In this document: in pieces, positions 2,576-23,127 of the stretch
Layout: each line of letters opens with the position of its first letter
How positions within the stretch are numbered: the first letter of the stretch is position 1
Assembly: GCA_052389415.1 (NCBI GenBank)
Contig: JBQTHX010000018.1
Span: 9,558-73,557, forward strand
DNA: 64,000 nt
Origin: Nitrosopumilaceae archaeon
GTDB taxonomy: Archaea; Thermoproteota; Nitrososphaeria; Nitrososphaerales; Nitrosopumilaceae
Direction: 5' to 3'
Position numbers and translations under genes: made by a program
The notes under the pieces: model-generated
Databases searched by the model: none
What the model was told of the DNA's origin: nothing
The model's input: the letters and a program-made list of their open reading frames with translations, nothing else

Positions 2576-2610
2576 AAAGGCCTTTATTGTCCTCGTCGTG
2601 AAATGCATTT

Positions 2611-3204: not shown

Positions 3205-3259
3205 ATTACAAATAATTTCTAAGACAGACTTATCTACCATTTGTGTTTCAAGCTGAATA

Positions 3260-4048: not shown

Positions 4049-4054
4049 TGCTGT

Positions 4055-4531: not shown

Positions 4532-5538
4532 TTTCTTGACATTTCCTGTTTGATGTCTAAGAGGTCTCGTAGTATGGAACTTGCTGTCTCCATCCCGCCA
4601 GCACCACGGCCTATTATTGTTTGTTGGCCCGAGTGCTCCGAATTGAAGGTGATTGCATTTAAAGTTCCATTAACACACAGTGGGTCATCAAGTGAAATAG
4701 CCTTTGGTGCAACAACTAGATCTCTGTTACAAGACGCAATCAACTTTATTGCACTTTTTTTTGCAGCGGCCTTTCTGACATCCACAGTTGTTACGTCGCT
4801 TATTCCCTTTCTTTCAATATCCTTCATAGTGACTTTCATATCCATAACCCAATTTGCAAGTATGACAAGCTTAGCAGCAGCATCAAAACCATCGATATCA
4901 AGAGAGGGATCAGCTTCGACATATCCCCTTGATTTTGCATCTGCAAGTGCCGCCTTGAAAGTCATTCCCTTTGCCATGTTTGTCAAAATATAATTTGTTG
5001 TGCCATTTAGTATTCCTTCAAATGAAACTATTCTTTCACCTCTCAAACTATTTTTTGCATAGTCTAAAATTGGCGTACCTCCGCCCACAGTTCCACTAAA
5101 CCGTAGTAATACCTGATTGTATATTGCAAGTTCCATCAAGGATGGAAAAGCAAGAGCAAGGGGTCCCTTATTTACAGTAATTACGTGTAGGCCATTTTTC
5201 ATTGCATTAACTATATGTGACATTCCGGGTTCAGCATCTTTGTAATTGCTAGTGGTAGTCTCTACGAGAACTTCCGCCTCCAGACCGCCTATCATGTCAA
5301 GCCCATTTGCGTCCTTTTCCTTGTTATGAAATTTTTTTATGCTTCCGTATTTTTTTTTCATTTCAAGCAATCTGTTTATATCAAGACCTGCTGATGACGC
5401 AGCTGAACCTTTGCTATCAAATACTCCAACAATCCGTGGCTTTAGTCCGTGTTTGGCATAAAGATCTTCTGATCTTGACAGCAATAACTTTGCAAAATTT
5501 TGGCCTACCACACCAAATCCACATAATATTATTCGCAA
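4528..5538 (-). CDS. hom: Homoserine dehydrogenase
   Basis: GFGVVG, VITVNKGP, VGGGTP, GILNGTTNYIL, EADPSLDIDGFDAAAK. Confidence 0.95.
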   Translation of the reverse strand: MRIILCGFGVVGQNFAKLLLSRSEDLYAKHGLKPRIVGVFDSKGSAASSAGLDINRLLEMKKKYGSIKKFHNKEKDANGLDMIGGLEAEVLVETTTSNYKDAEPGMSHIVNAMKNGLHVITVNKGPLALAFPSLMELAIYNQVLLRFSGTVGGGTPILDYAKNSLRGERIVSFEGILNGTTNYILTNMAKGMTFKAALADAKSRGYVEADPSLDIDGFDAAAKLVILANWVMDMKVTMKDIERKGISDVTTVDVRKAAAKKSAIKLIASCNRDLVVAPKAISLDDPLCVNGTLNAITFNSEHSGQQTIIGRGAGGMETASSILRDLLDIKQEMSRN

Positions 5539-5634
5539 CAGGAGACTGAAATCATACGGTATTAATTAAGATTGACTGGTATTTTGTGGCTGATCCGAGA
5601 TTGCTTTATTAAAGAATAAAAAAATTCACCGATT

Positions 5635-6276
5635 ATGAAATATGCAAAACATCTCTTTCTTGGCATTGGAATCGCAACAATGGCAATTATCATCGCCTTA
5701 ACATTGTACAATGAGAAAACTGAAATTCAAAAAATAGATACGCTCTCACTTGATTTTACGTATGATGATGCTAATACTCTATTAAAACAAAGCTTACAAT
5801 CTCAAGGAATTCTAGTGTCTTCACCTCTGCAATTTCAAAAACAGCAAGATATAGAAAGGTGGTGTAAATTCTTTAGCAGTCAAGAAAAACAAAAACTAGT
5901 AGAATATTGTACCTCTACTGAAATCAAAGATTCAAGTGGAAATTTTCTTGGAAACATCCACATCGTAGGGTCTCCTGAGGCTCCCAAATTAGTTCTTGTT
6001 GCATTGCAATCCAATCCTTTTTTTGAAAACATGAGTCAAATAAAGACTATTTTTGGCGCAGCTACAAAAGAACTTGTGTGCGATTGTTGGGAAACCGTAA
6101 AACCTGATGGATATGACACGCTGGATAACTGGATAGACGCTTTAGGTGATTTTCATACTGGCGGAAACAAGCCACACAGTGAATCAAAATCGATTCCTCT
6201 TGCGTTAAAACACGTACAAATTCAATTAACGACTACAACAGAAGGATTCGTTTGGGAAATGTTGATTGCAAAATGA
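5635..6276 (+). CDS. Membrane-anchored hypothetical protein
   Basis: N-terminal hydrophobic helix, 213-aa ORF. Confidence 0.7.
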   Translation: MKYAKHLFLGIGIATMAIIIALTLYNEKTEIQKIDTLSLDFTYDDANTLLKQSLQSQGILVSSPLQFQKQQDIERWCKFFSSQEKQKLVEYCTSTEIKDSSGNFLGNIHIVGSPEAPKLVLVALQSNPFFENMSQIKTIFGAATKELVCDCWETVKPDGYDTLDNWIDALGDFHTGGNKPHSESKSIPLALKHVQIQLTTTTEGFVWEMLIAK

Positions 6277-6358
6277 TTTGTAAAATATTTTACCAAATTA
6301 ACAGGTTCATTAAGGTTGACGTAACCATTAATCCATATCTTACTCCTTTGTGTGACTG

Positions 6359-7120
6359 TTGTTAGAAATCTGGTTATTGCTGTTAGGTTTTGCGGCAGGC
6401 ATACTTGGATCGATGATAGGGCTTGGTGGTGGAATTGTAATAGTGCCTGTCTTGACATTTTTTGGATTTTCCCCTGCGCTGGCTGCAAGCAACAGTCTTT
6501 TTGCAGCCTTTAGTAACGCTGTGGCATCTACATCCTCTTATGCAAAACAAAAAAGGATAGAATATTCAATTGGTTTGAAATTTGGATTACTCGCAATTCC
6601 TGGAACGGTACTTGGTGCATTTATCTCACATGATATTACACCATCATTGTTTAAGATATTGTTTGGAATTGTGTTAATTGTTTCAGGTGCATACATTTTT
6701 TTAAGAAGAAAGATCGAACCAAAAGAAAGAAACTTGTCAAAACAAGTTATTGTACTGTCAATCGGGGCAAGTTTCTTTGCAGGAATAATTTCTAGCTTAT
6801 TTGGTATAGGTGGCGGTATTGTATTTGTCCCTCTAATGGTGATTGCAGTTGGACTCTCGATGAAGATTGCCGCTCCTACATCACAATTTATCTTACTATT
6901 TGTTTCTGCGTCAGGAATGGCTGCTCACTCTATTCTTGGTCATCCTGATTACTATGAAGCACTCTTGCTTGCCATAGGTGCGTTTGTTGGTGGGTTGGTA
7001 GGAAGCAGACTCTCAGTAGAGGTAGAAGAAAAAAAACTACGAATCCTTGTAACAATAGTGATGATCGCTGCTGCAATCAAACTTTTTATTGATTCAGTAA
7101 TTGGTACTGGTCCTTTTTGA
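6359..7120 (+). CDS. TauE/SafE family (sulfite exporter) membrane protein
   Basis: Duplicated G[LI]GGG...VP motifs in a multi-TM protein. Confidence 0.88.
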   Translation: MLEIWLLLLGFAAGILGSMIGLGGGIVIVPVLTFFGFSPALAASNSLFAAFSNAVASTSSYAKQKRIEYSIGLKFGLLAIPGTVLGAFISHDITPSLFKILFGIVLIVSGAYIFLRRKIEPKERNLSKQVIVLSIGASFFAGIISSLFGIGGGIVFVPLMVIAVGLSMKIAAPTSQFILLFVSASGMAAHSILGHPDYYEALLLAIGAFVGGLVGSRLSVEVEEKKLRILVTIVMIAAAIKLFIDSVIGTGPF

Positions 7121-7544
7121 TCTGGTAAAGGTTACGTTTTGCAAGTACAACCAAGTCGCCATCTTCTTTGGTAGCTTCAAAATCAATTGCTAAAAGACCA
7201 AAATTATCGTTAAGATCTGTTTTTTCTGATATTCTAAATTTCATTTTTAAAATTTCATCCGTGTAAAGCGGTTTTAAAAATCTAGCATGTCTATTTTTCC
7301 ATGAAGGCTCTCCATCCATCCCATAAAATATCAACAAATTGCCGTACATCTCCTCTAGTTTAGTAAATTCACCTTCCATTCTTCCCAAAATTGCTCTTCC
7401 AGAAACGATTTTCTTTTGCTCATTGTCTTTGTACAATACATTTTTTATTCCAGAAAATACCAGATAACTTTCAAGCTCTTGTAATGTAATTTTTCCTTGG
7501 GAAAAAAACTCATCGCCAACATTTAGTTCTGAAAACTTTTTCAT
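7086..7544 (-). CDS. MaoC-like hot-dog fold protein
   Basis: FSELNVGDEF, RFLKPLYTDE; coupled to the upstream SDR (1-bp overlap). Confidence 0.65.
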   Translation of the reverse strand: MKKFSELNVGDEFFSQGKITLQELESYLVFSGIKNVLYKDNEQKKIVSGRAILGRMEGEFTKLEEMYGNLLIFYGMDGEPSWKNRHARFLKPLYTDEILKMKFRISEKTDLNDNFGLLAIDFEATKEDGDLVVLAKRNLYQIKKDQYQLLNQ

Positions 7545-9331: not shown

Positions 9332-9731
9332 TGATAGATGATGAACTTTTTCTGATATTTATTCCGATTGATCCGTTATGTGGAAAACTGATATGGTATT
9401 TATTACAAAAGCTAGTTTTGAGTACATGAATTTTGAGTAAACACCAATACTTTTTTGGTTTTTCACGTTTTTTTAAAAAAAAGGGAATCTGTTATGATTT
9501 CCGAAAAAACTTCCCATGTAGGGTGTCACATAAATTGCTCCTTTAAAATGACCCTTTGAATATTTGAATAGATGAACTATCCCGATGCTAGCAGATCCTG
9601 AGAGACATGATTTTATTTAGATGGTTATTTCGAGAAAAATCTATTTAACAGATTGGAAAGATACAAGAACCTATTGTCTTTCCTGGAAATTACAATACAA
9701 GATAATTAAAGTTCTTTCGCTATTGGGAATT

Positions 9732-10190
9732 ATGAGTAAACAAGTTTGCTTTTTATGTGAACAAGAACTAGGAGTGCTAAATATAAAATGGTCTGCAAAG
9801 GGTTTTCTTTCTTCAAGAGTTCCTATTCCAGAAGGGATGGGTGAAGAGGACAGAGTTTGTAACGAGTGTTACAACGTAGAAAAAAAGCAAGTCAAAGAAG
9901 AACTAAAGGAAGCAAAAGAGGAATTTAAAGAGATAACTGTGGATCTACTCAAAAGAACGCCTGAATACAAAAAACTCTGGAACAAGGATGGTGTTATTCA
10001 GTTCAAGAACGAAAGAGTAGCTATTCTTCAAAGAGCGCTAGGCAAGCAAGTGGAATTTATCATTGCGTTTGACGATCTAACAAAGGAAGGATACAAACTC
10101 ATGGCAATACAGGAGATTCAAAGCACAGATGGTAAATCTGTAGGAGGAATTAATTCCAACTACTTTTTCCAGAAAATGCAAAGCCTGTAG
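9732..10190 (+). CDS. Hypothetical protein with CxxC...CxxC zinc ribbon
   Basis: Probable start MSKQVCFLC at 9732; CNEC. Confidence 0.65.
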   Translation: MSKQVCFLCEQELGVLNIKWSAKGFLSSRVPIPEGMGEEDRVCNECYNVEKKQVKEELKEAKEEFKEITVDLLKRTPEYKKLWNKDGVIQFKNERVAILQRALGKQVEFIIAFDDLTKEGYKLMAIQEIQSTDGKSVGGINSNYFFQKMQSL

Positions 10191-10290
10191 TTATGTAGTT
10201 CAATTCTAAAATAATAAAACGAATCTTTATTTTTAATCCATTTTAAAACTGCCCAGAATATTTATTTGAGGGAGAAATTCTCATTCATGC

Positions 10291-10529: not shown

Positions 10530-10904
10530 TTGCAAGATCCAAACCCGTTGCCATGGGGCGCACAAGACCGTTTTCAGGCTCATTTCATAGTAAGGAGAAA
10601 CCTTTCTGAAGATGACAAGGGATTTGTAGCTGAAACAAAACAAACAACCAAAGGATTCTTTGGGTCAAATAAGCTGATTAATGTAGAATGGATAGGTGGA
10701 AGTATTGCTGACATACTAAACAACGACTCTGACCTTACCAAAATGATTCTAAAACAGTCTATCAAAGATGCTCAAATTAGGATAGATCCAACAAAGAATG
10801 GAGTGAGAATTTATGGAAAATGGAAAAGCGAAAACGAGTTTGGAATCTCAAAAGAACTGTTTGCTATATACGACAGAATAGCATCTCACATAAAAAATCT
10901 CTAA
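10530..10904 (+). CDS. Hypothetical protein
   Basis: 124-aa ORF 2 bp after previous gene. Confidence 0.6.
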   Translation: MQDPNPLPWGAQDRFQAHFIVRRNLSEDDKGFVAETKQTTKGFFGSNKLINVEWIGGSIADILNNDSDLTKMILKQSIKDAQIRIDPTKNGVRIYGKWKSENEFGISKELFAIYDRIASHIKNL

Positions 10905-11437
10905 GCTCGCCACCAATCTAGTGCTATACAATCTACCTTATCTTTGCCCCGTGGTATAGCTAAGATAAATTGCTTCTTGACTGTAGTGGCAAGCCTCCCA
11001 GCCAGAACCACTCCTGTAGCAGTAATTGTATCACTGGTGTTATAGACCTGAACTAAATAGGGAGCATGATCAATTCCAGGTCCTTTTTGATATACTGCAA
11101 AATCACAACCAAATTTTATTCCGGGATTTACTATGTATCCCTTTTCTCTGAAATCTTTGTAGACTGAATATTTTTTATCAAAGTTATGGTATTCTGACCT
11201 TGCTATTTGCAATAACTCCTTTTCTGAAATTTGTTTTTTTGCTTTGTAAACTTTAATTTTTGATTTTTGTATTAGGTAATATCCTTCTATTAAATCCAAA
11301 ATCAGAGGTACGTTTATCTCATCTAGTTTTGGTTTTGATATTCCAACTGGTTTTCCATAATATCCCTGCACAAAAAGAGAACGCGAATCTTGGATGTTCC
11401 AGATTACGATTCTATTTTCTATTAGTTCGCCTTTCAA
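10901..11437 (-). CDS. endA: tRNA-splicing endonuclease catalytic subunit; likely start TTG at 11437 (MKGELIENR)
   Basis: PGIKFGCDFAVY, GPGIDHAPY, RLATTVKK (Y/H/K catalytic triad). Confidence 0.92.
   Translation of the reverse strand: MKGELIENRIVIWNIQDSRSLFVQGYYGKPVGISKPKLDEINVPLILDLIEGYYLIQKSKIKVYKAKKQISEKELLQIARSEYHNFDKKYSVYKDFREKGYIVNPGIKFGCDFAVYQKGPGIDHAPYLVQVYNTSDTITATGVVLAGRLATTVKKQFILAIPRGKDKVDCIALDWWRA
11425..11437 (+). repeat. attL core GTTCGCCTTTCAA
   Basis: Identical to 23114-23126; 46 bp before integrase ATG. Confidence 0.88.
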
Positions 11438-11483
11438 TTTAGGATTATTGTCACTTAAATGCCAGTAATTAACGTTATAGACC

Positions 11484-12740
11484 ATGCAACGAAGTCTACT
11501 GCGATTCGAAAATGCCATAAAGAGTGAATCTACAAGAAAGTCATACAGGTATCAGCTACAAAAGTTTCTGGGATGGGCAAAAGTTCCTGAAGCTGATGGA
11601 CTGTTGAAACTTAGTGATTCTGACTTGGAATTGTTGCTTGAGGATTACCTGTTCTATAAAAAAACTAGAATCAGTCCTAATAGCATTCCTTTGATCTTTT
11701 CTCCACTTGAATTATTCTTTGGTATGAACGACAAAAATGTTAATTTTAAAAAATTAAGAAAAATGTTTCCTGCTAAAGTGAAGAGAAGTGGTTATGCTGC
11801 TTGGAGTAATGAAGATGCTCGAAAAATACTTGATGGTGCGAAAGGTTATCGTAACAAAGCACTAGTTCACGTTCTTGCAAGTACTGGATGTCGACTAGGG
11901 GCTATTCCTACATTGAAAGTAGGTCATGTTTCAGACATGCAAGGTGGATGCAAAGCAATCCTTCTCTATGAAGGATCAAACGAAGAATACTACGGTTTCT
12001 TAACCCCTGAAGCAAGTAAGGCACTGGATGAATATTTGGAGAGACGAAAACAGGACGGCGAAAAAGTAGGGATTGAATCTCCACTTTTCCGTTTACATTA
12101 CAGGATAGGTTCAGCAAAGGTGGAACCGCTTAACATGATTGCCCTGCAAGCCACGATGGTGAACATCATGAAATATGCAAGACCTAAGAGACACAAGGTT
12201 GGAATACGATACAACATTCAGCTTGATCACGGTTTTAGAAAGAGATTTGCCACAATTATCAAAATGGATAAAAAGATCAGTTGGGCAGTAGGGGAAAAAC
12301 TACTTGGTCATAAAACATATCTTGATGCGGAATATTTCAATCCTACAAAAGAAAACCTTTTTGCAGAATTTCAAAAGGTTGTTTTTAATCTTACAATCGA
12401 CGATTCTGAAAGAAACAAAATAACCATTCATGATCTAAAACAGCATAATTCTACTCTTCAAGTCAAGACTGCAGAAATTCCTGAAATGAAGAAGCAGATT
12501 GAACATGATCACTTGATAGTTCAGGTATTGGCAAAAACTATGAAGGAGATTGGAATAAATTTTGAATATCCTGACGGCACGCCATATAAGATTGATGAAA
12601 ATCTCAAAATCCCTGCTGAATACCTTCCTGAAACTGTTGCATACGATAAACCTCTAGTTGCACATAGCGAAGAAATTTTTCGTAAGATGCGTGAAAAAAA
12701 TAGTACTAATTTTTTTAATGGGGAAAAAAGGTCCTACTAA
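11484..12740 (+). CDS. Tyrosine recombinase/integrase
   Basis: STGCR (R), HGFRKRF (HxxR), LLGH, DAEYF (Y nucleophile); N-terminal STRKSY..L..F segment. Confidence 0.93.
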   Translation: MQRSLLRFENAIKSESTRKSYRYQLQKFLGWAKVPEADGLLKLSDSDLELLLEDYLFYKKTRISPNSIPLIFSPLELFFGMNDKNVNFKKLRKMFPAKVKRSGYAAWSNEDARKILDGAKGYRNKALVHVLASTGCRLGAIPTLKVGHVSDMQGGCKAILLYEGSNEEYYGFLTPEASKALDEYLERRKQDGEKVGIESPLFRLHYRIGSAKVEPLNMIALQATMVNIMKYARPKRHKVGIRYNIQLDHGFRKRFATIIKMDKKISWAVGEKLLGHKTYLDAEYFNPTKENLFAEFQKVVFNLTIDDSERNKITIHDLKQHNSTLQVKTAEIPEMKKQIEHDHLIVQVLAKTMKEIGINFEYPDGTPYKIDENLKIPAEYLPETVAYDKPLVAHSEEIFRKMREKNSTNFFNGEKRSY

Positions 12741-12957
12741 ATTTTAGAGAATTTTTTCTTGTTTTAATTACTTAGTAAAATAAATTCATCACACTTTATA
12801 CATTTCCAGAAACCTATGATTACGCCTAAAACCTCACACTAAGCGTGATATGATGTGTGATATTATAAAAAATGTGAAAATAGCCATAATGTTAGGCATA
12901 ACAAAATCACATTTTGATAGCTACCACAGGCATAACGTTTTCAGTACCGCATATTTT

Positions 12958-13380
12958 TTATGTTCACATAATTTTTTAAAATCACATAATTACACATTTT
13001 AGGCACATAATTAACATCTAGATATTCACATAAAAAATTGCCAAAAGTTTTTTTTGACCCGATACAGCTTGTTTGACACATCTTATGATTTGAATCTTTT
13101 AGGTCCATAAGAAAATCTTAGGAATAAGATTTTGAAATATTCTAAGATCAGGCATTTTATTCCTAAGATTCCTTCTATCTTGTTCCTAAGAAAAAAGGTA
13201 TTGTAATAACATTTAGCATATTTGCTTGTAATACCATATGACTCGTTGCAGGAAACGTCATAATATGGGACGAGTGAGTTCTTATAGGCTCATATTAAAA
13301 TCATGTGCACATGATTTTATGATATCACATGATCTGGTTTTTTGTTCACATGATCATTCACAAGCTACGCACATGAAAAA
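12958..13380 (+). repeat. Three modules of identical geometry (X'-N4-X-N13-X-N16-X-N18-X-AAAA) with X = CATAA, TAAGA, CATGA
   Basis: X at 12967/12985/13006/13029; 13125/13143/13164/13187; 13310/13328/13349/13372. Confidence 0.88.
13296..13319. repeat. Perfect 24-bp palindrome TAAAATCATGTGCACATGATTTTA
   Basis: Read directly; head of module 3. Confidence 0.9.
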
Positions 13381-13481
13381 GAGGTCTATTCAAATGAAAA
13401 AAGCTTGTATGACAAAAGCCTCGACATAAGCTTGATTATTTTGTACAAAAAGATGCGAATTTATCCATTTATGCAACAATT

Positions 13482-13505
13482 GCGTAATCATTGTATAGAT
13501 TACGC
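13482..13505. repeat. Dyad GCGTAATC-N8-GATTACGC overlapping the stop codon of the EndoIV-like gene
   Basis: Read directly; direct copy at 14457-14482. Confidence 0.8.
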
Positions 13506-14345
13506 GGATAATTCCTTTACTTTTTTTATGTTTCCAAAGTCATCGCGTCTATCATCTATTGGCGTTTCCAAAATGATTGGAATCTTCTTAGAACTAGCAA
13601 ATTTAATCACGTGTCTGAGTCCTTCTTCTCCTATCTTGCCTAATCCAATGTGCTCATGTCTGTTTACGTTGCACCCTATTTCTCCCTTCGAATCATTTAG
13701 ATGAATTAGTTTGAGGTGCTCAAATCCTATGGATTCATCAAATTTTTTAAGCGTTGTTGAAACTGATGTTTCAGTTCGTAAATCATATCCTGCTGCAAAT
13801 GCATGGCAAGTGTCAAAGCAGATGCCAAACCTATTTGCAGGTTTGAGTTGCCGCAAAATGGAAGCTAGCTGCTCAAAATCAGAACCTACGCTGTTTTTGA
13901 ATCCAGCCGTGTTCTGAAGAAGAATCATAACATCGTTTTGGTTTTCTGAAGTAGCTTTTGTAAACGCTTCAACAAGCTTTTCTATTGCCCTCTCGTCACC
14001 CGCTCCCATGTGGCTTCCTAGCTTAGATATGAGGTATGGAATGCCTAGTTGACCAGCTCTTCTTGTCTCATCAATTAAGCTGTTCAAAGATCTTACAAAA
14101 AAATCTCCATGTGGAGATGATAGATTTGACAGAATTGGCATTTTAGCAAACGTTGCAAACCTGTCAATTTTACTTGCAGCAAGTTTTTCTCTAAAATTAG
14201 TTATAACATCATTTGAAAGTGGTTTTGCTTTCCACCCACGTGGATTTCTTGTAAAAATTTGAAAAGCAGTGCAACCAAGAGTTAGTGCGTTATCTACTGC
14301 TCTATCGATGGAACCACTGATGGATACATGCATTCCAAGCTGCAT
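13500..14345 (-). CDS. Endonuclease IV (Nfo) paralogue with substituted metal ligands
   Basis: GMHVSISG, FQIFTRNPRGW, CFDTCH, IHLNDS, ILETP present; KMPI, SKLGSH, QNTAG, NRH replace HMPY, THLGSH, ENTAG, DRH. Confidence 0.92.
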   Translation of the reverse strand: MQLGMHVSISGSIDRAVDNALTLGCTAFQIFTRNPRGWKAKPLSNDVITNFREKLAASKIDRFATFAKMPILSNLSSPHGDFFVRSLNSLIDETRRAGQLGIPYLISKLGSHMGAGDERAIEKLVEAFTKATSENQNDVMILLQNTAGFKNSVGSDFEQLASILRQLKPANRFGICFDTCHAFAAGYDLRTETSVSTTLKKFDESIGFEHLKLIHLNDSKGEIGCNVNRHEHIGLGKIGEEGLRHVIKFASSKKIPIILETPIDDRRDDFGNIKKVKELSA

Positions 14346-14440
14346 CGTCTTTCATCTATAACAAGTCGGTGATTTAGATAAACTGGATCGTCTCATATAC
14401 GAATAAAATTTTAATTTCATGTGAGAATTAGATTTACCGT

Positions 14441-14482
14441 CGTAATCCTAAACAAGATTGCGTAATCTTAGTAGAGATTACG
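14441..14482. repeat. Two overlapping CGTAATC-N8-GATTRCG dyads (20-bp period)
   Basis: CGTAATC ctaaacaa GATTGCG (14441-14462); CGTAATC ttagtaga GATTACG (14461-14482). Confidence 0.8.
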
Positions 14483-14721
14483 AAATAAAATCAAATCATA
14501 CGCAAGAACAGAAACGCAGATAGATCCTAATCTATGCTGGATCTCAACAGACTAGAACCAATATTGTAGTTTGAACAAAGATTCAATCGATATACATGGA
14601 AGTGTCAAAAAGACACCTGCTGAACAAGATGAAATAAAGCTAATTTTGGTCAGAATAAGATAATCGTTTGTCGAAAAACTTTAGGCTTTATATATTTATT
14701 TTATAAAATGTACAAATATTT

Positions 14722-14744
14722 TATCTTTACAACAAGTAAAGATA
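14722..14744. promoter_or_regulatory. Operator-like palindrome TATCTTTAC-N5-GTAAAGATA upstream of the Lamassu-like operon
   Basis: Perfect 9-bp arms between an AT-rich TATA-like stretch (~14687-14706) and the start at 14773. Confidence 0.45.
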
Positions 14745-14772
14745 TTAACTAATCACAAATGATGATCAAGAA

Positions 14773-15992
14773 GTGGGAAAATTTTCTGCAGCTTCGTCTG
14801 CTCTCGGATACCTATTTCAGGCAAGGGAAGGATTACTCCTATTACTAAATTCAGAACCAAAAACTGTCATGTATTTAGAACGTTTTGATGACATAGAATT
14901 TGAAAAAGATGGTTCACCAACGGAACTAATACAGTTAAAACACAAACCAAGGTCGGCAACATCTCTGTCGGATACTAGCCCGGACATATGGAAAACACTA
15001 CGAATTTGGATTGAAGCGCATAAGAGCCGCCATGTTAACTTAGATAACACAATTTTCACCATAATTACTACAAATAAGGCAGAACATAATTCTGTAGCAA
15101 GTGTATTAGGATTAGATCAATCTAAACGGGATGTCAAATACGCTGTGGAGACTCTAACAACAGTGGCTAAAACTTCAGTTAGTAAGACTAACGAAGTAGC
15201 ATACAAAGTCTTCTTAAATCTAGAATACGGCGAACAATACAAATTATTAGATAGCACAAGAATCATAGATTCAGCTTCAACTATAGTAAATTTGCAAGAG
15301 GCATTCTACAAAAAATTAAGAATAGCCATTGACCAGAACACCTCAAATCCTTCCTCGAACGATTAGAGGGGTGGTGGTTTGGCGTTGTCATTAGTCATTT
15401 ATCCGGTGACTCTTCAGAACCAATTCATTATGAGGAGTTAGAAGCAAAGATTCATGATCTAAGTGACCAGTATCGAGTTGAAGATCTGCCAATAGATTAC
15501 AGAAACCTGATTCCTACAGAGGAAGCAGAATTAACAGCAAAACAACAAATTTTTGTAAATCAACTAAACATCATCATGTTAAGACAACCCAGAATAAAAA
15601 AAGCTATTACCGATTATTACAAAGCGTATAATCAACGGTCAAGATGGGTAAGAGAAAAGCTTGTTTTTCTCAACGAACTAAGTGAATATGAATCACAGTT
15701 AATTGATGAATGGGAACGTTATTTCTTTAAAGTTGATGAAGGTCTTCGTTCTACCCCCACCGAAGGCGAGTTAGTGAGTGCAGGAAGAACAATTTTTGAC
15801 TGGATGGATACTCAAGCCGATTTCTGCATAAGAAAGTATTGTACGGAACCATACGTTATGAGAGGCACGTATCATATTCTTGCAAATAAACTTCGTGTAG
15901 GCTGGCATCCAAAATTCCTAGAGCGTCTACAAGAATTACTTTCACCAGATTCGGAGAAACATTATGGAACAACAGAAAGAGCGTCCAATTGA
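14773..15992 (+). pseudogene. Lamassu LmuA/DdmA-like Cap4-type PD-(D/E)xK nuclease, frameshifted at ~15330
   Basis: SALGYLFQ, ERFDDI, LIQLKH; alternate frame from 15333 reads PEHLKSFLERLEGWWF and is open into ORF 15576-15992 (RGTYHILAN..VGWHP). Confidence 0.85.
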
Positions 15993-16449
15993 AATAGCGT
16001 CCCTTCTTAATCCAGCATTTTGTGGTCAGACTATATTGCATTGTATTTACAAATTTGAAAAAGTTGCTTCAGATGGATTCCCATACCCGTTGGTTTTTCT
16101 AGTATTGCCATTAATACTACATCAGGAAACAAGAGCAAAGGTTCCTTCTTTTACCCGCATCCCGTTTCATGTTTGGCTCCATAAAAATCAGAATCTGTTA
16201 ATTGGCTTCGCAGAACGTGCAAAACAATTGGTCACAATTACGAAAGAAGCCATTGCATTCTTGGCGAGTTATGACGTACTTAAATTAGAAGATGGAAAAT
16301 TCAGAGTTAGTAACTTTGAACCAAAATATGATGCTGCTATCTCACTGGATGTAAAGGATTGCTTTGCGAAGGCGGAAGTATTAGGAAAGTGGTTTGCAAG
16401 AACGGGTACTACAGCGACAATATATTCTATGTTAGGAGTGCAACCCTAG
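15964..16449 (+). CDS. ABC three-component middle protein (LmuC/DdmB-like, DUF6521-like)
   Basis: RP.EIASLLNPAFCG, LVLPLILH, LGKWF; lies between effector and SMC-like ATPase. Confidence 0.8.
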   Translation: MEQQKERPIEIASLLNPAFCGQTILHCIYKFEKVASDGFPYPLVFLVLPLILHQETRAKVPSFTRIPFHVWLHKNQNLLIGFAERAKQLVTITKEAIAFLASYDVLKLEDGKFRVSNFEPKYDAAISLDVKDCFAKAEVLGKWFARTGTTATIYSMLGVQP

Positions 16450-16450
16450 T

Positions 16451-18367
16451 TTGCAAATTTTGCAAGTAATTCTATATGGTTATAATAACAAAGTACGTAC
16501 GTTATCGTTTAAACTAGGCTCAGTAAACATAATCACTGGTAATTCTGCAACAGGCAAATCCGCCATACTAGAAATTGTTGATTATTGTTTAGGTAAATCG
16601 GAATGTTCGGTACCAGCTGGCGTCATCCGTGATTCAGTAAGATGGTTCGGAATTGTTCTACAACTGAAAAATAGTCAAATGTTTATTGCAAGGAAAAATC
16701 CTCCAGCTGGTAGCACATCTTCAGAAGTGTACATAGAGGAAGCTAAAGAGATTCGTATTCCGTCCTCTCCAATGCCAAGTAATAGTAATGTTGATGCATT
16801 AATTGAGACTCTGAGTAATAAAGTCGGAATATCTCCTAATCTTTACATTCCACCGAGAGGTCAAACGCGAGAAAAGTTATCCGCGACGATACGTCATACT
16901 ACATTCTTCTGTTTTCAAAAGCAGGATGAAATTGCGACCAACAGATATCTATTCCATCGTCAAGCAGATGGTTTTATCGCGCAATCGATTAAGGATTCTT
17001 TAGAATATTTTTTGGGCGCGATTAGGGAAGACAGATTAGCATTACTACAGAAATTAACTCTAGAAAAGAGGAATTTAAGCAAAGCAGAACGAGAACTGGT
17101 CGAGGCAGAAGCAATTAGAGGGGAAGGAATAAGCAAAGCTGTAGGATTAATAATACAAGCCAAAGAAGTTGGACTTGCTTCTCAGGAAGTTAACACACAA
17201 ACACCGGAAGAATATCTAAAAGTGCTCCAAAATATTTCAAAATGGAGACCTCGCGATCTAAAGGTTCCAAAAGCAAATCTTTTAGAAAAACTACAAGATG
17301 ACCTGCTGACACTAAAAGAAGAATTAAGAAGGAAAAATGAAGAAATAAATTCAGCAGTTACATTCTCTCAAGAGGCAGAAGGATTTACGGATGAGATACA
17401 ATATCAAGAACACCGTCTCGAATCTATAGGGCTATTTGATGAACACAGTGAATCCGATTGCCCCATGTGTTCGCAGCCTATTAAGGAAAGGAGTGATAAA
17501 GCTAAAGAAATTCAAAAGATGATTCATGAACTAAAAAATAATCTTGAGGGCTCACTGAGAACAAGATCGAATATTAGAGATTACATAGCAAAATCTGACG
17601 AAGAAGCAGAATCGATCAGAAAGAAAATCGACGAAAAAACCATTGAAATTTCATCGTTAATACAAGAACATGAATCATCAAGCAAGTTACGTGATGAGAA
17701 TATCCGGCAAAGCCAGATCATTGGCAAGATAAAATTTTGGCTCGAGAGTGTTGCTCTTACAGACGAAACGTCAGAATTGCGGTTGGCTGTTGAAAAAGCT
17801 AAGAAGAAAGTGAAGGAACTAGAATCATTAATTTCTGATGAGGAGAGAATAATGCGTCTAACTAGGATTTTGAACATTATCGGAAGGCAAATGTCTATTT
17901 GGACAGAAGAATTAGAATTAGAGCATAGTGGATATCCTGTTTATTTTGATATTCACAAATTAACAGTTGGAGTAGAAAAAGATGAACAATATATTCCTCT
18001 AATAGAAATGGGGAGTGGCGAGAATTGGTTAGGCTATCATATAATAGTAAATTTTGCTCTGCATTTGTATTTCCATCGGCATAATAGACCAGTACCAAGT
18101 TTTCTCTTCTTAGATCAACCGTCTCAAGTCTATTTCCCGCCAGATTTAGCAGATGAGTCGAAGGGTTCAATAGCTAAACTGAAAGATCGAGATAGAGATG
18201 CGATTAAAAGGATATACAATTTCATTTTCAAAGTTACAGAATCAATGGCGCCAAACTTTCAGGTAATAGTAACGGATCATGCAAAGTTGGACGATCCTAA
18301 ATTCCTTAAAAGTATTAGAGAAGAATGGAGAGACGGTAAAGCTTTGATTCCTCAAGATTGGCAATAG
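16451..18367 (+). CDS. Rad50/SMC-like ABC ATPase (LmuB/DdmC-like, DUF3732)
   Basis: Walker A ITGNSATGKS, coiled coils with CPMC hook, GSGENW signature, LFLDQPSQVYFP, VIVTDH. Confidence 0.88.
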   Translation: MQILQVILYGYNNKVRTLSFKLGSVNIITGNSATGKSAILEIVDYCLGKSECSVPAGVIRDSVRWFGIVLQLKNSQMFIARKNPPAGSTSSEVYIEEAKEIRIPSSPMPSNSNVDALIETLSNKVGISPNLYIPPRGQTREKLSATIRHTTFFCFQKQDEIATNRYLFHRQADGFIAQSIKDSLEYFLGAIREDRLALLQKLTLEKRNLSKAERELVEAEAIRGEGISKAVGLIIQAKEVGLASQEVNTQTPEEYLKVLQNISKWRPRDLKVPKANLLEKLQDDLLTLKEELRRKNEEINSAVTFSQEAEGFTDEIQYQEHRLESIGLFDEHSESDCPMCSQPIKERSDKAKEIQKMIHELKNNLEGSLRTRSNIRDYIAKSDEEAESIRKKIDEKTIEISSLIQEHESSSKLRDENIRQSQIIGKIKFWLESVALTDETSELRLAVEKAKKKVKELESLISDEERIMRLTRILNIIGRQMSIWTEELELEHSGYPVYFDIHKLTVGVEKDEQYIPLIEMGSGENWLGYHIIVNFALHLYFHRHNRPVPSFLFLDQPSQVYFPPDLADESKGSIAKLKDRDRDAIKRIYNFIFKVTESMAPNFQVIVTDHAKLDDPKFLKSIREEWRDGKALIPQDWQ

Positions 18368-18830
18368 GCGGTGACAAATTAATGACAGGACGATTCATGG
18401 AGTCTTTTCCAGATGTTGAAATTATAACTTGAATCTTATTTCAACTTAAAATATCACTTTCAGGAACAACTGATGCCTTTGGATGTTAAGATTGTAGTAG
18501 ATCCTGCCAAACAAATAGGATGATACATGTCTTGCATTGATAATGTTGTATTGGCTGCTTTTGCGTTTTACTATCAATGAAAACTATGACTAAATTCAAT
18601 GGAAATAAGATTAATTTTGTTAATTAATGAATGACGTGGCAATAAATTTCTAAACAATAATCTTTTCGTGCAAATTTTCTAAACGATTAAAATTTCCAGT
18701 TTAGGAAATGTGAAACTGATGAATTCTACTTAAAGTTTAATAAAATCGACTATACGACCACGGTATGAATGTATTTTTGAATCATGACATCCATTCAGGC
18801 ATATATTTCGAAAGGGATATGATGTAATAG

Positions 18831-19895
18831 ATGTATCCACTGATTGACGCCGCACGACTTTACGATGAACTTGCTTTGTCGTCGGAGAGAATTAAATGGT
18901 CTTGGGCTTGCAGAATTTTAGATAAATCCAACCTTAAGATTGATACTTCACTGCCAACGACGCCAAGAGCTGGTGATATTGTTCTTGTAAGAGTGGAACA
19001 AATTGGTTATCATAAATCAATCATAGCTTCTAGCAATAAAAAACTCCGTATATATGATGGCGATCTTATCATGGGAATTTTTGGGAACCGATATGCCACA
19101 AACGCACTTGAAGGTGTAGTCGAAGGATTTGAAAACCTCAGCATTTTGACTGCAGGTGGAATGATTGGAACGGTAAAATCCAAACATCAAGACTTTGGGA
19201 AAACTACCAACGTCTCATTTATTGGGTTTCTAAATGACAAGAGTAACCATAGGGTTAACCTAAAAGAACTGAAATTTCACAAATCGAAACCAGTCAGCGA
19301 TACAAAAAATCTAATAGTTTTAGTTGGAACAGGAATGAATACAGGCAAAACAACATCTGTTAGAATGCTAATTAGAGGACTTTCAAAAAGGGATCTAAAA
19401 ATAGCTGCATGCAAACTTACAGGTAGTGTGTCAAATAGAGACGCAGACGAAATGAGGTCCGCATCAGCTAGCTGTACAATTGATTTTAGCGATTATGGAT
19501 TTCCTTCAACATATCTGTGTGACAAAGAAGAGTTACTTGATCTCTTCAATAATATGTTATCTGATGTGGAAAAGTTAAATCCAGACGCAACGGTGATGGA
19601 AATTGCTGATGGTATTCTTCAAAGAGAAACCATGATGCTTCTTGAGGATCCATCAATTAAAAAAAGAGTCAAAGGCATTATACTAACAGCGGAAAGTGCA
19701 CCATCTGCGCTTTATGGTGTTGACAAACTCAAAAAATTAGGTTACAATATAATCGGGGTATCGGGTGCAATGACATCGTCACCATTATTTGTAAAAGAAT
19801 TCAGGCAAAACTGCGAAGTCAGAGTAGCGTCATCTGTTGATTCGGCGGATGAATTGGTCGAAATTGTTCACAAGGCTATTACTATGGAAAACTAG
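18831..19895 (+). CDS. DUF1611-like P-loop protein
   Basis: GNRYAT, GTGMNTGKTT, KLTG, EIADGILQRET. Confidence 0.72.
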   Translation: MYPLIDAARLYDELALSSERIKWSWACRILDKSNLKIDTSLPTTPRAGDIVLVRVEQIGYHKSIIASSNKKLRIYDGDLIMGIFGNRYATNALEGVVEGFENLSILTAGGMIGTVKSKHQDFGKTTNVSFIGFLNDKSNHRVNLKELKFHKSKPVSDTKNLIVLVGTGMNTGKTTSVRMLIRGLSKRDLKIAACKLTGSVSNRDADEMRSASASCTIDFSDYGFPSTYLCDKEELLDLFNNMLSDVEKLNPDATVMEIADGILQRETMMLLEDPSIKKRVKGIILTAESAPSALYGVDKLKKLGYNIIGVSGAMTSSPLFVKEFRQNCEVRVASSVDSADELVEIVHKAITMEN

Positions 19896-19911
19896 AAGAC
19901 ATTGTTGAAGA

Positions 19912-21684
19912 ATGAGCTCACAGCAGATATCTCCAGTAAAATATGCACTTAAGCATCTTAAAAAATATAAGCTAAAATTAGCAGCTGCCATCTTCTGGTC
20001 TATTCTTTTTGTAATAATTCCTATGCAGGTGCCTATTCTTACTGGAGCTTTAATTGATGGCATACATGGAAAGAGTGTAAAATTATACGGACTTGTAGAA
20101 TTAAATCAATCACAGGAACAAATTCTCAATCTTGCTGTTATAGGTCTAGTTCTAGTTGCCGCAATTTATGGTGTCACTGCGTATTTTCGTACAACTGCAA
20201 GAGCAAAGATAAGTCGGCACTTCATATTTGAGCTTCAAAAAGCACTGATTCAAAAATTAGAATTTCTATCCTTAGATATACACGCAAAATACGGATCTGG
20301 AGAACTACTAAACAGAACAATAGTTGATACTGGTTCAGTAAGACCGTTTGTTGAAGGCACTATAATCAAAGCGTGCACCAACGTTGTTAGAATAACATAT
20401 CCATTTCTAATACTGTTCATTATGGATCCAATTCTTGCTGCAATGTCTTCGTCAATCTTGCCCGTTCAATTCTTACTTACTAGAACTCTACAAAAAAAAG
20501 TTCGTAAAGCGTCAAGACATTCTAGAAAAAACAGATCAAAGTTAACCACCTTCGTAAAGGAAAGTCTTGATGGCATAGAAACAATTCAAACTTCAAATGC
20601 CGAAAGATATTCAATTGAGAAAATTTCCCGACAAGCAGAAATGGTGGAAACCCATCAATTACATACTCAGAAATATTTTGGACTGATGACTGGTCTTGCA
20701 TGGTCTCTAACTAGTTTAGGACTAGCAATAACATGGTGGCAAGGTGGACTCAAGGTCATATCAGGAGAAATGACAATAGGCAATCTAATAGTTTTCACAG
20801 GGTTTGTACTCTTTATTTATGCCCCCCTGCGCAGATTTACGGAAGTAATGAAGGATTACCATAAAAGTATAACAGCAGTTGAGAATATTCAAGAAATTCT
20901 GGATACACCTTCATCAATTCAGGAATCTCCAGATGCGGTACAATTAACAGCGCCACATGGAAAAATAGAACTCCAGAACGTCAGTTTTTCATATGCTGAA
21001 CGCAAAGTATTGAACAATCTTAACATTACTATCGAAAAAAATAGCATTACAGCCATAGTAGGTAAAAGTGGTTCAGGGAAGAGCTCTCTTTTAAAATTGA
21101 TTACAAGACTGTATGATCCCTCGGAGGGACAAATTCTGATTGATGGACAGGATATCAAAAAAATCACTCTTCTATCCCTTAGAAAGGCTATCGCAGTTGT
21201 TCCTCAGACACCTGTGATCTTTAATGGAACAATACTGGAAAATGTCAGATTAGCAAGACCAGAGGCAACAGATCAAGAAGTAATAGAAGCATGCAAATCA
21301 GCTGACGCGTTGGAATTTATTCTTAAACTTGATAGGGGATTCAACGCAGTTCTAGGAACTGGTGGAACCAATCTTTCTGGAGGACAAGTCCAACGAGTAG
21401 CCATAGCAAGAGCCTTACTTAAGAAACCAAGAATACTTTTGCTGGATGAACCCAGCTCCGCCTTAGATGCTAAATCAGAATCAGCTGTGATAGCAACGTT
21501 AGAACATCTAAAAAATAATATGACAATCATATTGGTTGGGCATCATCTTAAAGCAATTAGCAGTGCAGACAGATTAATCGTATTAGATGACGGAAAAGTA
21601 GTGCAAGAAGGAACTCATAAAGAACTTGTTTCTTCACAGGGAGTTTACAGTCTCTTGTATTCTTGGGAGGAAAATAAAAATTGA
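19912..21684 (+). CDS. ABC exporter, fused TMD-NBD (MsbA-like)
   Basis: GKSGSGKS, LSGGQ, LLLDEP; N-terminal TM domain. Confidence 0.92.
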   Translation: MSSQQISPVKYALKHLKKYKLKLAAAIFWSILFVIIPMQVPILTGALIDGIHGKSVKLYGLVELNQSQEQILNLAVIGLVLVAAIYGVTAYFRTTARAKISRHFIFELQKALIQKLEFLSLDIHAKYGSGELLNRTIVDTGSVRPFVEGTIIKACTNVVRITYPFLILFIMDPILAAMSSSILPVQFLLTRTLQKKVRKASRHSRKNRSKLTTFVKESLDGIETIQTSNAERYSIEKISRQAEMVETHQLHTQKYFGLMTGLAWSLTSLGLAITWWQGGLKVISGEMTIGNLIVFTGFVLFIYAPLRRFTEVMKDYHKSITAVENIQEILDTPSSIQESPDAVQLTAPHGKIELQNVSFSYAERKVLNNLNITIEKNSITAIVGKSGSGKSSLLKLITRLYDPSEGQILIDGQDIKKITLLSLRKAIAVVPQTPVIFNGTILENVRLARPEATDQEVIEACKSADALEFILKLDRGFNAVLGTGGTNLSGGQVQRVAIARALLKKPRILLLDEPSSALDAKSESAVIATLEHLKNNMTIILVGHHLKAISSADRLIVLDDGKVVQEGTHKELVSSQGVYSLLYSWEENKN

Positions 21685-23018
21685 TTCAACTAGATTCTGT
21701 TCTGAAACCTATAGAAAATCACAACTCATCTGAATCTGAAATTATTGGTTTTTCAGAAGAGGATAGGCCATTAACCGTTACATACCATGGTAGAAACATA
21801 AAATCATCACTTAGGGTTTTTATTATTGCGGGTCAACATGGAGACGAAAGATATGGACGTAAAGCCATTGATCGTTTTATTACTTACATGACAGATGGAA
21901 AACTAAATTTTCCACTAATGCAGTTTGCAATTTTGTCTAACGCAAATCCAGACGGTGCGTCAGTAAGGAAACGAGAAAACGCACAGGGGATAGATTTGAA
22001 TAGAGATCATCAACGTTTGGACAGTAAGGAGAACCGCTGTGTACATTCCTTCGTAAGACGATGGAATCCACACATGATTATTGATGTACACAACTACCCT
22101 TCAAAAAGGAAACATCTACTAGAAAAAGACATCATGCTATATTATGATGTACTTGTAGACGTTCCAACAAATCCAGCTGCCTATTGTATTAAAGAAAAAA
22201 GCAAAGCAGAATTCATAAAAAATATTCGTTCAGATCTACGATCTCATAACATTAATTGTGAAAGATACTTTATTGTAAAGCCATCGGGGAGAGTCAGACA
22301 TGGTAGCCCTGACATAGTAGACGCTAGAAATTCGCTTTCATTAAGGTACAACACTTTGACTTTTCTAGTAGAGGGACGAACTTCCACACGAGGAGAAGAT
22401 AAATCCTACAGGGAACATCTTGTTTCTTCCCAATGCGAAGCGATTGCATCAATACTGCGATGGACCCAAACGCAAAGAAGTTCTTTAATGGAAAATCAAA
22501 ACTCCATTCCTAAAAAAGGAGACAATGTCGCAATTAGTTCGAGATATGTAGGAGCTACTCAACCATTTGAAATAAGTTTTAAGAATTTACAAACAAGAAA
22601 ATTGGACGTTGTTTCACTTGTAAAGTATACGCCCAGCATAAAAGTTACAAAATATGCTACTTTACCAACTTGTTACGCTATTCCATCAGGTAAGTCCAAG
22701 GTCATTGAAATGCTACATAGACATGGATTCGTGTCTGCGCTTTCTGACTCCCATAAGTTTGAAAATATTCAATATTATAGTATTCAGTCTGTAAAATATT
22801 CAACACGCGAAAATAGAGCGCCAAGGAAAATCACTATGTTGACAAAATCAGAACAAAGAAGATTAGATAAATTCTTTATTTTCCCCACATCTCAAAGAGG
22901 AGGTCACTCGCTTGCAGTCTTTTTGGAGCCTGACTCGAAGTACGGACTTCATAGATACGCCGATCTAGATCTGCCAATTATTCCAGATTCACATTATCAT
23001 ATCTTACGAATTATGTGA
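21681..23018 (+). CDS. M14 family zinc carboxypeptidase
   Basis: QHGDE, NPDG, RENAQGIDLNRD, IDVH. Confidence 0.85.
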   Translation: MIQLDSVLKPIENHNSSESEIIGFSEEDRPLTVTYHGRNIKSSLRVFIIAGQHGDERYGRKAIDRFITYMTDGKLNFPLMQFAILSNANPDGASVRKRENAQGIDLNRDHQRLDSKENRCVHSFVRRWNPHMIIDVHNYPSKRKHLLEKDIMLYYDVLVDVPTNPAAYCIKEKSKAEFIKNIRSDLRSHNINCERYFIVKPSGRVRHGSPDIVDARNSLSLRYNTLTFLVEGRTSTRGEDKSYREHLVSSQCEAIASILRWTQTQRSSLMENQNSIPKKGDNVAISSRYVGATQPFEISFKNLQTRKLDVVSLVKYTPSIKVTKYATLPTCYAIPSGKSKVIEMLHRHGFVSALSDSHKFENIQYYSIQSVKYSTRENRAPRKITMLTKSEQRRLDKFFIFPTSQRGGHSLAVFLEPDSKYGLHRYADLDLPIIPDSHYHILRIM

Positions 23019-23113
23019 CCATCATGTGGATACACACTTCAAGTTCAGCCTTGATGACACGTAGTCTTTAGAATTTTTGATACTATCATACAATTGAAAA
23101 AATTCGCTAATTT

Positions 23114-23126
23114 GTTCGCCTTTCAA
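23114..23126 (+). repeat. attR core GTTCGCCTTTCAA
   Basis: Identical to 11425-11437; 1 bp from the DUF47 stop codon. Confidence 0.88.
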
Positions 23127-23127
23127 G

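Follow-up and report, generated by a model that had tools for sequence, protein, structure and literature searches.

What are the short dyad-symmetric repeats that bracket an endonuclease IV gene (nfo) on an integrated island of a Nitrosopumilaceae archaeon, and do they make this gene a mobile cassette? We have analyzed a stretch of 64,000 nucleotides from this genome (hereafter the window, whose positions are used unless another locus is named), in which nfo lies between copies of the pattern CGTAATC-N8-GATTACG. A sequence-only reading of the window had taken these dyads for tyrosine recombinase core sites and had proposed that nfo was captured, or can be excised, as an integron-like cassette. 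We find that the window dyads are copies of a class of ~26-28-bp dyad-symmetric sites, widespread and apparently undescribed, which occurs across Nitrosopumilaceae between the cargo genes of integrase-bearing islands. The explanation that we prefer, with a probability of roughly one half, is that they are recombination sites of the Xer/dif type dividing island cargo into exchangeable modules, and not parts of a canonical integron.

The features on which the question turns are listed here (genomes, contigs and loci are designated G, C and L throughout).

13483..13504, no strand: left dyad, CGTAATC ATTGTATA GATTACG, 0 mismatches; contains the nfo stop codon; identity to the relative island L306 drops here
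13500..14345, minus strand: accessory endonuclease IV gene (nfo), 281 aa; third copy in the genome
14441..14462, no strand: right dyad a, CGTAATC CTAAACAA GATTGCG, 1 mismatch; compared with L306, the initial 20 bp are inserted
14461..14482, no strand: right dyad b, CGTAATC TTAGTAGA GATTACG, 0 mismatches; lies upstream of nfo, 116 bp from its start

The repeats are as they had been described from the sequence alone. A repeat search of the window returns a single family of 26-nt direct repeats, 88% identical (23/26) and spaced 978 bp apart, in which 13479-13504 reads ATTGCGTAATC-ATTGTATA-GATTACG and 14457-14482 reads ATTGCGTAATC-TTAGTAGA-GATTACG. The third dyad that had been claimed is present as well, right dyad a overlapping right dyad b by 2 bp; the latter also lies 291 bp upstream of the open reading frame (ORF) at 14773. 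At up to two mismatches, the pattern has these three matches in the window versus 0.04 expected, a number that was reached in 0 of 100 shuffles. In the whole genome (1,430,811 bases, ~1.43 Mb), the three window dyads are the only matches with at most one mismatch, the reversed-pattern control giving none. Allowing two mismatches raises the total to five, and the additional two are weak.

The enclosed gene is likewise the one predicted, a single endonuclease IV-like gene with its stop codon in the left site. The ORF matches Pfam AP_endonuc_2 with 132.8 bits and exceeds the cut-off of NCBIfam TIGR00587 (254.8 versus 129.65 bits, over residues 2-274), and its TAA, the complement of 13500-13502, lies within the dyad arm 13498-13504. 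The cassette idea would have been weakened by a motif that also flanks the ordinary nfo, and this is not what is seen. The two other nfo copies of the genome, on C14 (72% identical to the window nfo) and C67 (65%), are not flanked by dyads. None of 10 same-genus genomes, most of which have two nfo genes, contains a dyad at up to one mismatch; the ordinary chromosomal nfo is therefore not dyad-flanked. No nfo more than 77% identical to that of the window was found in 400 family genomes, the best match being 77%.

A class of dyad-symmetric sites between genes of variable regions

A search for the motif in related genomes, which the sequence-only reading had suggested, reveals sites bounding genes well beyond the window. 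At up to one mismatch, 77 of 401 family genomes have at least one dyad, with as many as 44 per genome versus 0-3 for the reversed control, and the highest counts are those of G411 (44), G419 (27), G401 (20), G185 (16) and G103 (12); these family-genome tallies take in the unpublished genomes G108, G122, G123 and G229. The dyads are clustered, forming arrays between the genes of variable regions, and they often lie just downstream of genes for Xer-like tyrosine integrases. For example, G032 has eight sites within 6.6 kb, five of them with at most one mismatch, while in G411 groups of dyads are spread over at least 11 contigs, and a site forms the end of several of these. In a scan of all genomes, the matches listed are mostly chance singletons in bacteria; Nitrosopumilales or Thaumarchaeota make up 6 of the 80 titled rows among the matches listed, and one of these, L100, is another array. 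None of 113 loci from viral contigs has an array or a centre of the family type. No published description of the dyads was found in the parts of the literature searched, supplementary files not included.

As for the anatomy of the sites, a profile of 228 half-sites has T at position -2 in 207, C at position -1 in none, and a pyrimidine as the opening base of the spacer in 201. Position -2 lies outside the search pattern. The extended site measures ~26-28 bp, reads T-D-CGTAATC-Y / 6 bp / R-GATTACG-H-A, and has arms of 10-11 bp. Since the flanks of the window dyads also prolong the symmetry, arms of ~10 bp around a 6-bp centre fit better than a 7-8-7 arrangement; the dyads claimed earlier are real, and their proposed 8-bp asymmetric spacer has to be refined. 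In bacteria and archaea, dif consists of two inverted repeats, each of 11 nt, with a 6-nt spacer between them, according to a passage of PMC8371274, and the dyads show this Xer/dif geometry of two inverted arms of ~11 nt around a 6-nt centre.

The centres are not random. Among 115 sites there are 46 distinct central 8-mers, 13 of which recur in at least two genomes and together cover 70 sites; the commonest, CTATACAA, occurs 17 times in 7 genomes. Moreover, a set order of centres recurs with different genes in between (GTTAGGTA > CTAGTAGA > TGTAGTTA > TTACTATG > CTATACAA). In arrays of different genera, the only DNA in common is the sites themselves, 27-50 bp long, as illustrated by L018 11455-11481 and L100 2780-2806, which are identical at 27 of 27 positions. 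As for the window dyads, the centre type of right dyad a (CTAAACAA) recurs in G185:C30, and the reverse complement of the left centre, TATACAAT, is one shift off the commonest family type. The orientation of the left site is ambiguous, the centre 8-mers of the left dyad and right dyad b matching at 5/8 positions when direct and 2/8 when inverted. Pairs of dyads placed nearly back to back, as at 14441-14482 in the window, are also seen elsewhere (L021 7185/7217, L298 8686/8717, L301 409/451), with eight pairs separated by gaps of at most 100 bp among 114 sites; they may be module slots that are empty, or sites for cooperative binding.

The sites lie between genes, whichever way these are transcribed. 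Merely 3 of 81 are inside ORFs, which are small and doubtful. Among gaps between ORFs of at least 100 aa, those with dyads make up 19 of 56 when convergent, 29 of 130 when tandem and 15 of 46 when divergent. A promoter element would be expected to shun convergent gaps and a transcript-end element divergent ones; the dyads shun neither, and are therefore not promoter elements. No promoter consensus was found at a fixed distance from the dyads, and with 19 of the 63 dyad-bearing gaps being convergent, the motif does not occur mainly at promoters, the other outcome that would have spoken against core sites. Gene ends within 150 bp of a site number 53, and 9 of them, including that of the window nfo, stop at the TAA of an arm, in line with the claimed overlap of stop codons and sites. 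Between a site and a gene start there are always at least 35 bp, and for 12 of 51 starts the distance is 35-54 bp. The cargo between sites comprises genes for histidine kinases, response regulators, methyltransferases, NYN proteins, serpins, a multicopper oxidase, a chemoreceptor, and AIPR and Hcp-like proteins, together with many small ORFs of unknown function. Co-oriented arrays with one gene per interval occur, for example L303; in others, orientations are mixed and an interval contains several genes. The window amounts to one interval.

Two clades of Xer-like integrases adjoin arrays, in G000, G012, G032, G168, G185 and G411. Clade A includes the window integrase, to which the enzymes of L307, L298, L301 and L018 are 84%, 45%, 39% and 27% identical, respectively; dyad arrays are neighbours of those of L298 and L301. 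Clade B (L284, L290 and L019, with 51-59% mutual identity, and in one instance next to a D5-like primase) is present in 20 of 401 genomes, in a tally that includes the unpublished G229, and at least three dyads are found in 10 of these 20 versus 26 of the 381 others. The distance from the integrase match to the first dyad after it is ~40 bp in both G419:C22 and G401:C126. XerA_Arch is the best match for all array-side integrases, at 21.9-78.7 bits versus a cut-off of 220, while the best score of eight such enzymes against TIGR02249 (IntI) is 40.5 bits versus a cut-off of 265. The histidine kinases of L021, L065, L093 and L100, which blast clustering had put forward as integrases, were rejected by Pfam.

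Several further observations concern the arrays in their own right. Two are mirror images with the same order of site types, L018 6480-13092 (G032, back to back) and L289 4586-16421 (G411, face to face), an arrangement that puts sites of like type in inverted order and could give rise to large inversions. L289 (G411:C28) also encodes, at 17742-18983 and 1.3 kb from the dyad array, a Cas1 homologue (Pfam Cas_Cas1, E 2.7e-60), which may belong to a casposon. Contig C22 of G411, with like dyads near both ends, was considered as a circular element and rejected, its genes being ordinary metabolic ones. In G411 there is a conserved 85-bp unit, in which a GTTAGGTA-type dyad is followed by 60 bp ending in CTTTTTCTAT, usually after the stop of a ribbon-helix-helix (RHH)-like gene (L284 1483-1566, L289 4586-4669 and seven more copies). 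It was rejected as the general form of the sites, being restricted to one site type and mainly to G411. Finally, no single-copy dyad-like site was found in the present genome as a candidate for the host dif. The candidate CATAATC-N6-GATTACG on C94, with its 6-bp spacer, is a lone chance match here, and AATAATCCAACCAGATTACG, which recurs in relatives, lies in a conserved coding start, possibly that of an SRP19-like gene; both were rejected.

Breakpoints at the sites and what could have made them

Mosaic breakpoints coincide with the sites. In blastn matches between the fetched loci (at least 85% identity over at least 100 bp), 8 of 66 internal match ends fall within 5 bp of a site edge versus ~0.45 expected (80 sites, 258,733 bp), a ratio to be read with the relatedness of the genomes in mind, and these eight ends correspond to four independent junctions. 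For example, L284 1-1924 and L285 11097-9174 (both G411, 99.7% identical) part 2 bp past the TGTAGTTA site; from there on they differ in the interval to the following site, 547 bp versus 283 bp. The 1,103 bp common to L285 5232-6334 and L286 4794-5896 begin at the first base of the CTATACAA site. L100 and L285/L286 share a histidine-kinase gene at 92% identity, its homology ending in a site arm and its neighbours being different. Within the sites themselves, two arm variants are found in G185, one (A/G) at arm position 5 and the other (T/C) at the mirror position, and sites that share a centre carry them in each of the four possible combinations, which is as would be expected from crossing-over within the site. 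Sites of like type in direct order also flank single segments, such as L100 2783 and 3769 around one ORF of 213 aa. The earlier reading of the window dyads is thus supported in part: they have the core-site geometry of tyrosine recombinases, their family lies at module borders beside integrase genes in other genomes, and breakpoints fall on the sites.

We infer that a recombinase, most plausibly an Xer-like enzyme, and not general recombination, made these joints. A dimer of it would bind the two ~10-bp arms and exchange strands across the centre, the type of which would dictate which sites pair, and the DNA between sites would behave as exchangeable modules. More tentatively, the arrays could represent an undescribed module-exchange system, with dif-geometry sites of at least 13 heterospecific 6-8-bp centre types across genera, at which Xer-like enzymes would swap, insert and delete modules while their order is kept.

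The dyads might instead be operators of an island-borne regulator, recombination being incidental to them and their 22-26 bp serving as microhomology, as is the case for the PeSL cassettes of T4-type phages, whose regulatory motifs are able to drive module shuffling according to PMC2839356 and PMC4122927. We regard this main rival as rather unlikely, although a regulator can be named. An RHH-like family of 47 aa (MxKRVTIxLDDDLxKKLR...SVSFS...LRKGLK) is encoded between dyads in five arrays of G411 and L100 (L289 4668-4811, L286 7516-7659, L284 15014-15157, L290 4626-4778 and L100 2015-2158), with 15 copies in G411 and 6 in G242. A dyad lies 62 or ~107 bp upstream of its gene start, and the distances kept by gene starts in general would also suit an operator. 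However, the family was not found in G185, which is 97% complete and has 16 dyads, and it lies away from arrays in G032 and G012, for which reasons it was rejected as a universal dyad binder; in the present genome its sole copy is distant and lies on another contig. Its best Pfam matches, Tra_M (E 0.012) and RHH_5 (E 0.12), are not significant. Operators would also be hard to reconcile with convergent gaps as rich in dyads as divergent ones and with the lack of a promoter consensus at fixed distance, and a spacer unread by a dimeric regulator would not be expected to be conserved across genera amid unrelated flanks. It is improbable, too, that the dyads are structural sites for partition, replication control or silencing, which have no role in gene exchange and sit at gene borders simply by exclusion from coding sequence. 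Their restriction to variable islands, their many copies per element, their strict placement between genes and, in one array-bearing element, the D5-like primase beside the integrase would agree with such a function, but breakpoints at sites, mixed arms and ordered recurrent centres would be left unexplained. Partition and origin repeats normally bunch in one short region, and do not occur one per gap over many kilobases, which counts against structural sites.

Still less probably, the dyads are REP-like hairpins that owe their spread to a Y1 (IS200/RAYT-type) transposase, or RNA hairpins by which transcripts are ended or stabilized. A dyad can form a 7-9-bp stem with an 8-nt loop, copies range from 0 to 44 per genome, and many sites follow stop codons. 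Yet Pfam Y1_Tnp (PF01797) is found in one of the five dyad-richest genomes, G401, while being detected in control genomes; arm variants combine without compensation; dyads also occupy divergent gaps, where no transcript ends; and Rfam has no match at E up to 1 in 12700-15400. As for a canonical integron cassette, captured by IntI through recombination of attC with attI, we consider that it can practically be dismissed. The mostly single-gene arrays between repeated sites next to a tyrosine recombinase, and the stop codons within sites, do resemble one, but the scores against TIGR02249 stay far below its cut-off, the window enzyme has no match to it, and the sites are near-perfect double-strand dyads of 22-28 bp without longer conserved flanks. 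By comparison, attC sites are imperfect palindromes of 57-141 bp (R''-L''...L'-R'), recombined as folded single strands. The archaeal integrons so far described have the bacterial structure, and the main text of PMC9668308, which reports them, has no word beginning with Nitroso or Thaumarch. The integron-like part of the sequence-only reading is thus not upheld, there being neither IntI nor attC, and the att of the island integrase having a sequence of its own.

The 11.7-kb island and the history of its nfo gene

The window dyads lie within an integrated island of 11.7 kb (11425-23126), which has the following further features.

11425..11437, no strand: attL core GTTCGCCTTTCAA, within the 5' end of a tRNA-splicing endonuclease ORF (10901-11518, minus strand)
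11484..12740, plus strand: island tyrosine integrase, 418 aa, Xer-like, clade A; at the left end of the island
13294..13482, no strand: conserved non-coding stretch, ending at the left dyad; 86-93% identical to L306
14773..18367, plus strand: island cargo beyond the dyads on the right, comprising an unknown protein of 197 aa and a defence set of the ABC-three-component (ABC-3C) kind (CTD7, MC3, DUF3732, by Pfam)
23114..23126, no strand: attR core GTTCGCCTTTCAA, exact direct repeat of 11425-11437

The island combines the three marks of an integrated mobile element, namely an integrase, an att present as flanking direct repeats (of 13 bp), and an empty site in relatives, in which GTTCGCCTTTCAA is found in a single copy. 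When four same-genus loci were compared by blastn, 11441-23115 was absent from three (G008, G009 and G001). The fourth, L168 (G006:C7), has a different insert of 4.8 kb (2400-7202) at the same att position in endA, a position that is an integration hotspot in repeated use. The window integrase matches Pfam Phage_integrase (32.4 bits) and the XerA structure 5hxy in the PDB (E 4.9e-6); its best NCBIfam match is XerA_Arch, with 62.8 bits versus a cut-off of 220, and the IntI model does not match it. Read-derived data were available as Logan contigs from three runs of one study, two of which are possibly the source of this DNA. In run X1, possibly the source sample and hence not independent, one contig ends at 11437, another covers exactly 11408-23143 at a depth of 14.6, and a third begins at 23114, with a depth of ~19.8 in the flanks; in addition, the empty site is seen in a 47-bp contig of depth 7, in which the left flank continues into 23110 onward. 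From the contig breaks, the empty-site contig and the depth gap, it follows that the island is a genuine integrated element, either missing from part of the sampled population or excising. At the scale of the window, nfo is an accessory copy, carried by an island for which the sampled population is polymorphic. The contigs of the three runs gave neither a joint nor a deletion or circle form at the dyads, which is uninformative either way, since contigs lose rare variants.

A metagenome relative of the island, L306, whose integrase is 82% identical to that of the window over the part present, bears on how the layout arose. Its gene order is the same: integrase, conserved non-coding stretch, dyad, nfo, dyad. 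Identity between the two is 85.7% left of the left dyad (88-93% in the core) and falls to ~70% from the dyad onward, with 70.0% for the nfo coding sequence, 71.4% for the region 5' of nfo and 68.6% for the right flank. L306 lacks the 20 bp that form the window dyad at 14441, and has 20 additional bp between the left dyad and the nfo stop. In the alignment, the left dyad thus coincides with a change of history, while the right dyads do not clearly do so. The nfo proteins of the window and L306 are 67.9% identical, which is below the identity of each to its best chromosomal nfo (77% and 74%). In a maximum-likelihood tree, the two are not sisters and both are long-branched; an approximately unbiased test leaves their sisterhood unrejected (p 0.088).

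Several observations weigh against our explanation, and they should be considered together. The dyads of L306 are decayed (TGTAATC ACTTTATA GACTGCA and CGTAGTC TTCGTAGA GATTAGT, with four and three arm mismatches), conservation of the dyads between window and L306 (72.7% and 81.8%) is no better than that of their surroundings, and the low-identity segment of homology stops at 14591, not at the right dyad. The two sites flanking the window nfo have unlike centres, and the island att (GTTCGCCTTTCAA) is unrelated to the dyad, its arms being different. Elsewhere, the histidine-kinase gene shared by L100 and L285/L286 is followed by different centre types, which exchange within identical centres does not explain. 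Integrase clades A and B are ~30% identical over short stretches only, yet both adjoin arrays; L303 and the first array of L289 have no integrase in the fetched DNA; and no enzyme is tied to the dyads. Junctions are mostly known from metagenome assemblies, in which several contigs end at sites and assembly joins at repeats are possible, and the enrichment figures are overstated because related genomes are not independent.

Since L306 keeps the layout with decayed dyads, the arrangement of integrase, dyad, nfo and dyad is old and stable rather than newly captured. The window dyads are probably inherited remnants of module exchange, and not an active cassette. What stands of the cassette proposal is the membership of the dyads in a family of module-border sites; what does not is the excision of nfo, no excised or circular form being seen in contigs, the flanking centres being different and the layout being old. 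Present-day mobility of the window nfo is thus unsupported.

Other parts of the island and its vicinity deserve mention. The conserved non-coding stretch 13294-13482 contains CACATGA at 13308, 13326, 13347 and 13370, and in reverse at 13301; together with 12965-13027, it is characterized by repeated CACATGA/CACATAA motifs and a palindrome, ATCATGTGCACATGAT. Possible contents are arm-type integrase sites, an origin or a small RNA. Folding of 13294-13510 gives z -1.0 on the plus strand and -2.7 on the minus strand, driven by the palindromes. The ABC-3C set (15576-18367) looks complete, with CTD7, MC3 and a DUF3732 ATPase, and is preceded by the 197-aa protein, which belongs to no known family. 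Outside the island, there is a second small insertion relative to same-genus genomes (9391-10256), where ~870 bp replace 10-28 bp in relatives; it encodes an ORF of 189 aa with no Pfam match.

The proposed module exchange and known systems

Ammonia-oxidising archaea are among the most abundant microbes of ocean and soil, and the turnover of accessory genes in their small genomes is poorly understood. If the dyads are recombination sites, they provide a new and easily searchable marker of mobile gene modules in these organisms, as well as a naturally heterospecific set of sites usable as genetic tools, of which these organisms have almost none. Should the more tentative module-exchange system exist, it would correspond in nature to recombinase-mediated cassette exchange, and among archaea it would be analogous to integrons and dif modules; modules carrying kinases, methyltransferases, defence genes, or repair genes such as the window nfo would pass between elements.

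How do the dyads and their island compare with systems already described? The 11.7-kb island as a whole fits the integrated mobile elements of Thaumarchaeota, which, in passages of the survey PMC6563490, have a tyrosine integrase at one end, a short att and insertion in protein genes; it has an end-placed integrase, a 13-bp att and a protein-coding target. Internal dyad arrays are not described in main-text passages of that survey, supplementary files not included. In the PeSL cassettes of T4-type phages, as presented in PMC2839356, nearly all genes of a hypervariable region are separated by a short motif at which module swaps end. The dyads share with them a conserved motif between genes at which module swaps end. 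In contrast, PeSLs are composites of promoter and terminator acting through homologous recombination, whereas the dyads have no promoter consensus and do not depend on the direction of transcription.

Integrons, the archaeal ones included, are similar in that a tyrosine recombinase stands by an array of accessory genes, with recombination-type sites, stop codons in the site, and some arrays lacking an integrase. Unlike them, the dyad arrays have no IntI, consist of short double-strand dyads and not of attC folded as single strands, hold genes in both orientations, and keep an order of site types that insertion by attI x attC recombination would not. Integrons are therefore a functional analogue only, membership failing on IntI and attC. 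In their geometry, the dyads share with loxP and FRT core sites inverted arms and, between them, a short asymmetric centre conferring direction and pairing specificity. As for heterospecific loxP/FRT spacers, unlike centres would guard an array against self-deletion and permit swaps between like sites. Natural loxP and FRT are, however, single sites, and heterospecific cassette exchange is a laboratory design.

The closest known system is that of the dif modules of Acinetobacter plasmids, which are bounded by pdif (XerC/XerD) sites, as set out in PMC6449649 and PMC13141974. In both, sites of ~11-6-11 architecture flank accessory modules of one or a few genes, many sites are present per replicon, modules are (or, for the dyads, may be) shuffled between contexts, and no dedicated recombinase is proven. 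The dyads differ in residing on archaeal chromosomal islands and not on bacterial plasmids, and in having symmetric arms, as expected of a single Xer-type enzyme, where pdif has distinct XerC and XerD halves. Furthermore, a likeness to the host dif could not be demonstrated for them, an Xer-like integrase is often found beside their arrays, and their many centre types follow a set order. If the dyads are indeed recombination sites, they would constitute the third natural module-and-site system, after integrons and the Acinetobacter dif modules, and the first based on symmetric archaeal sites of the Xer type.

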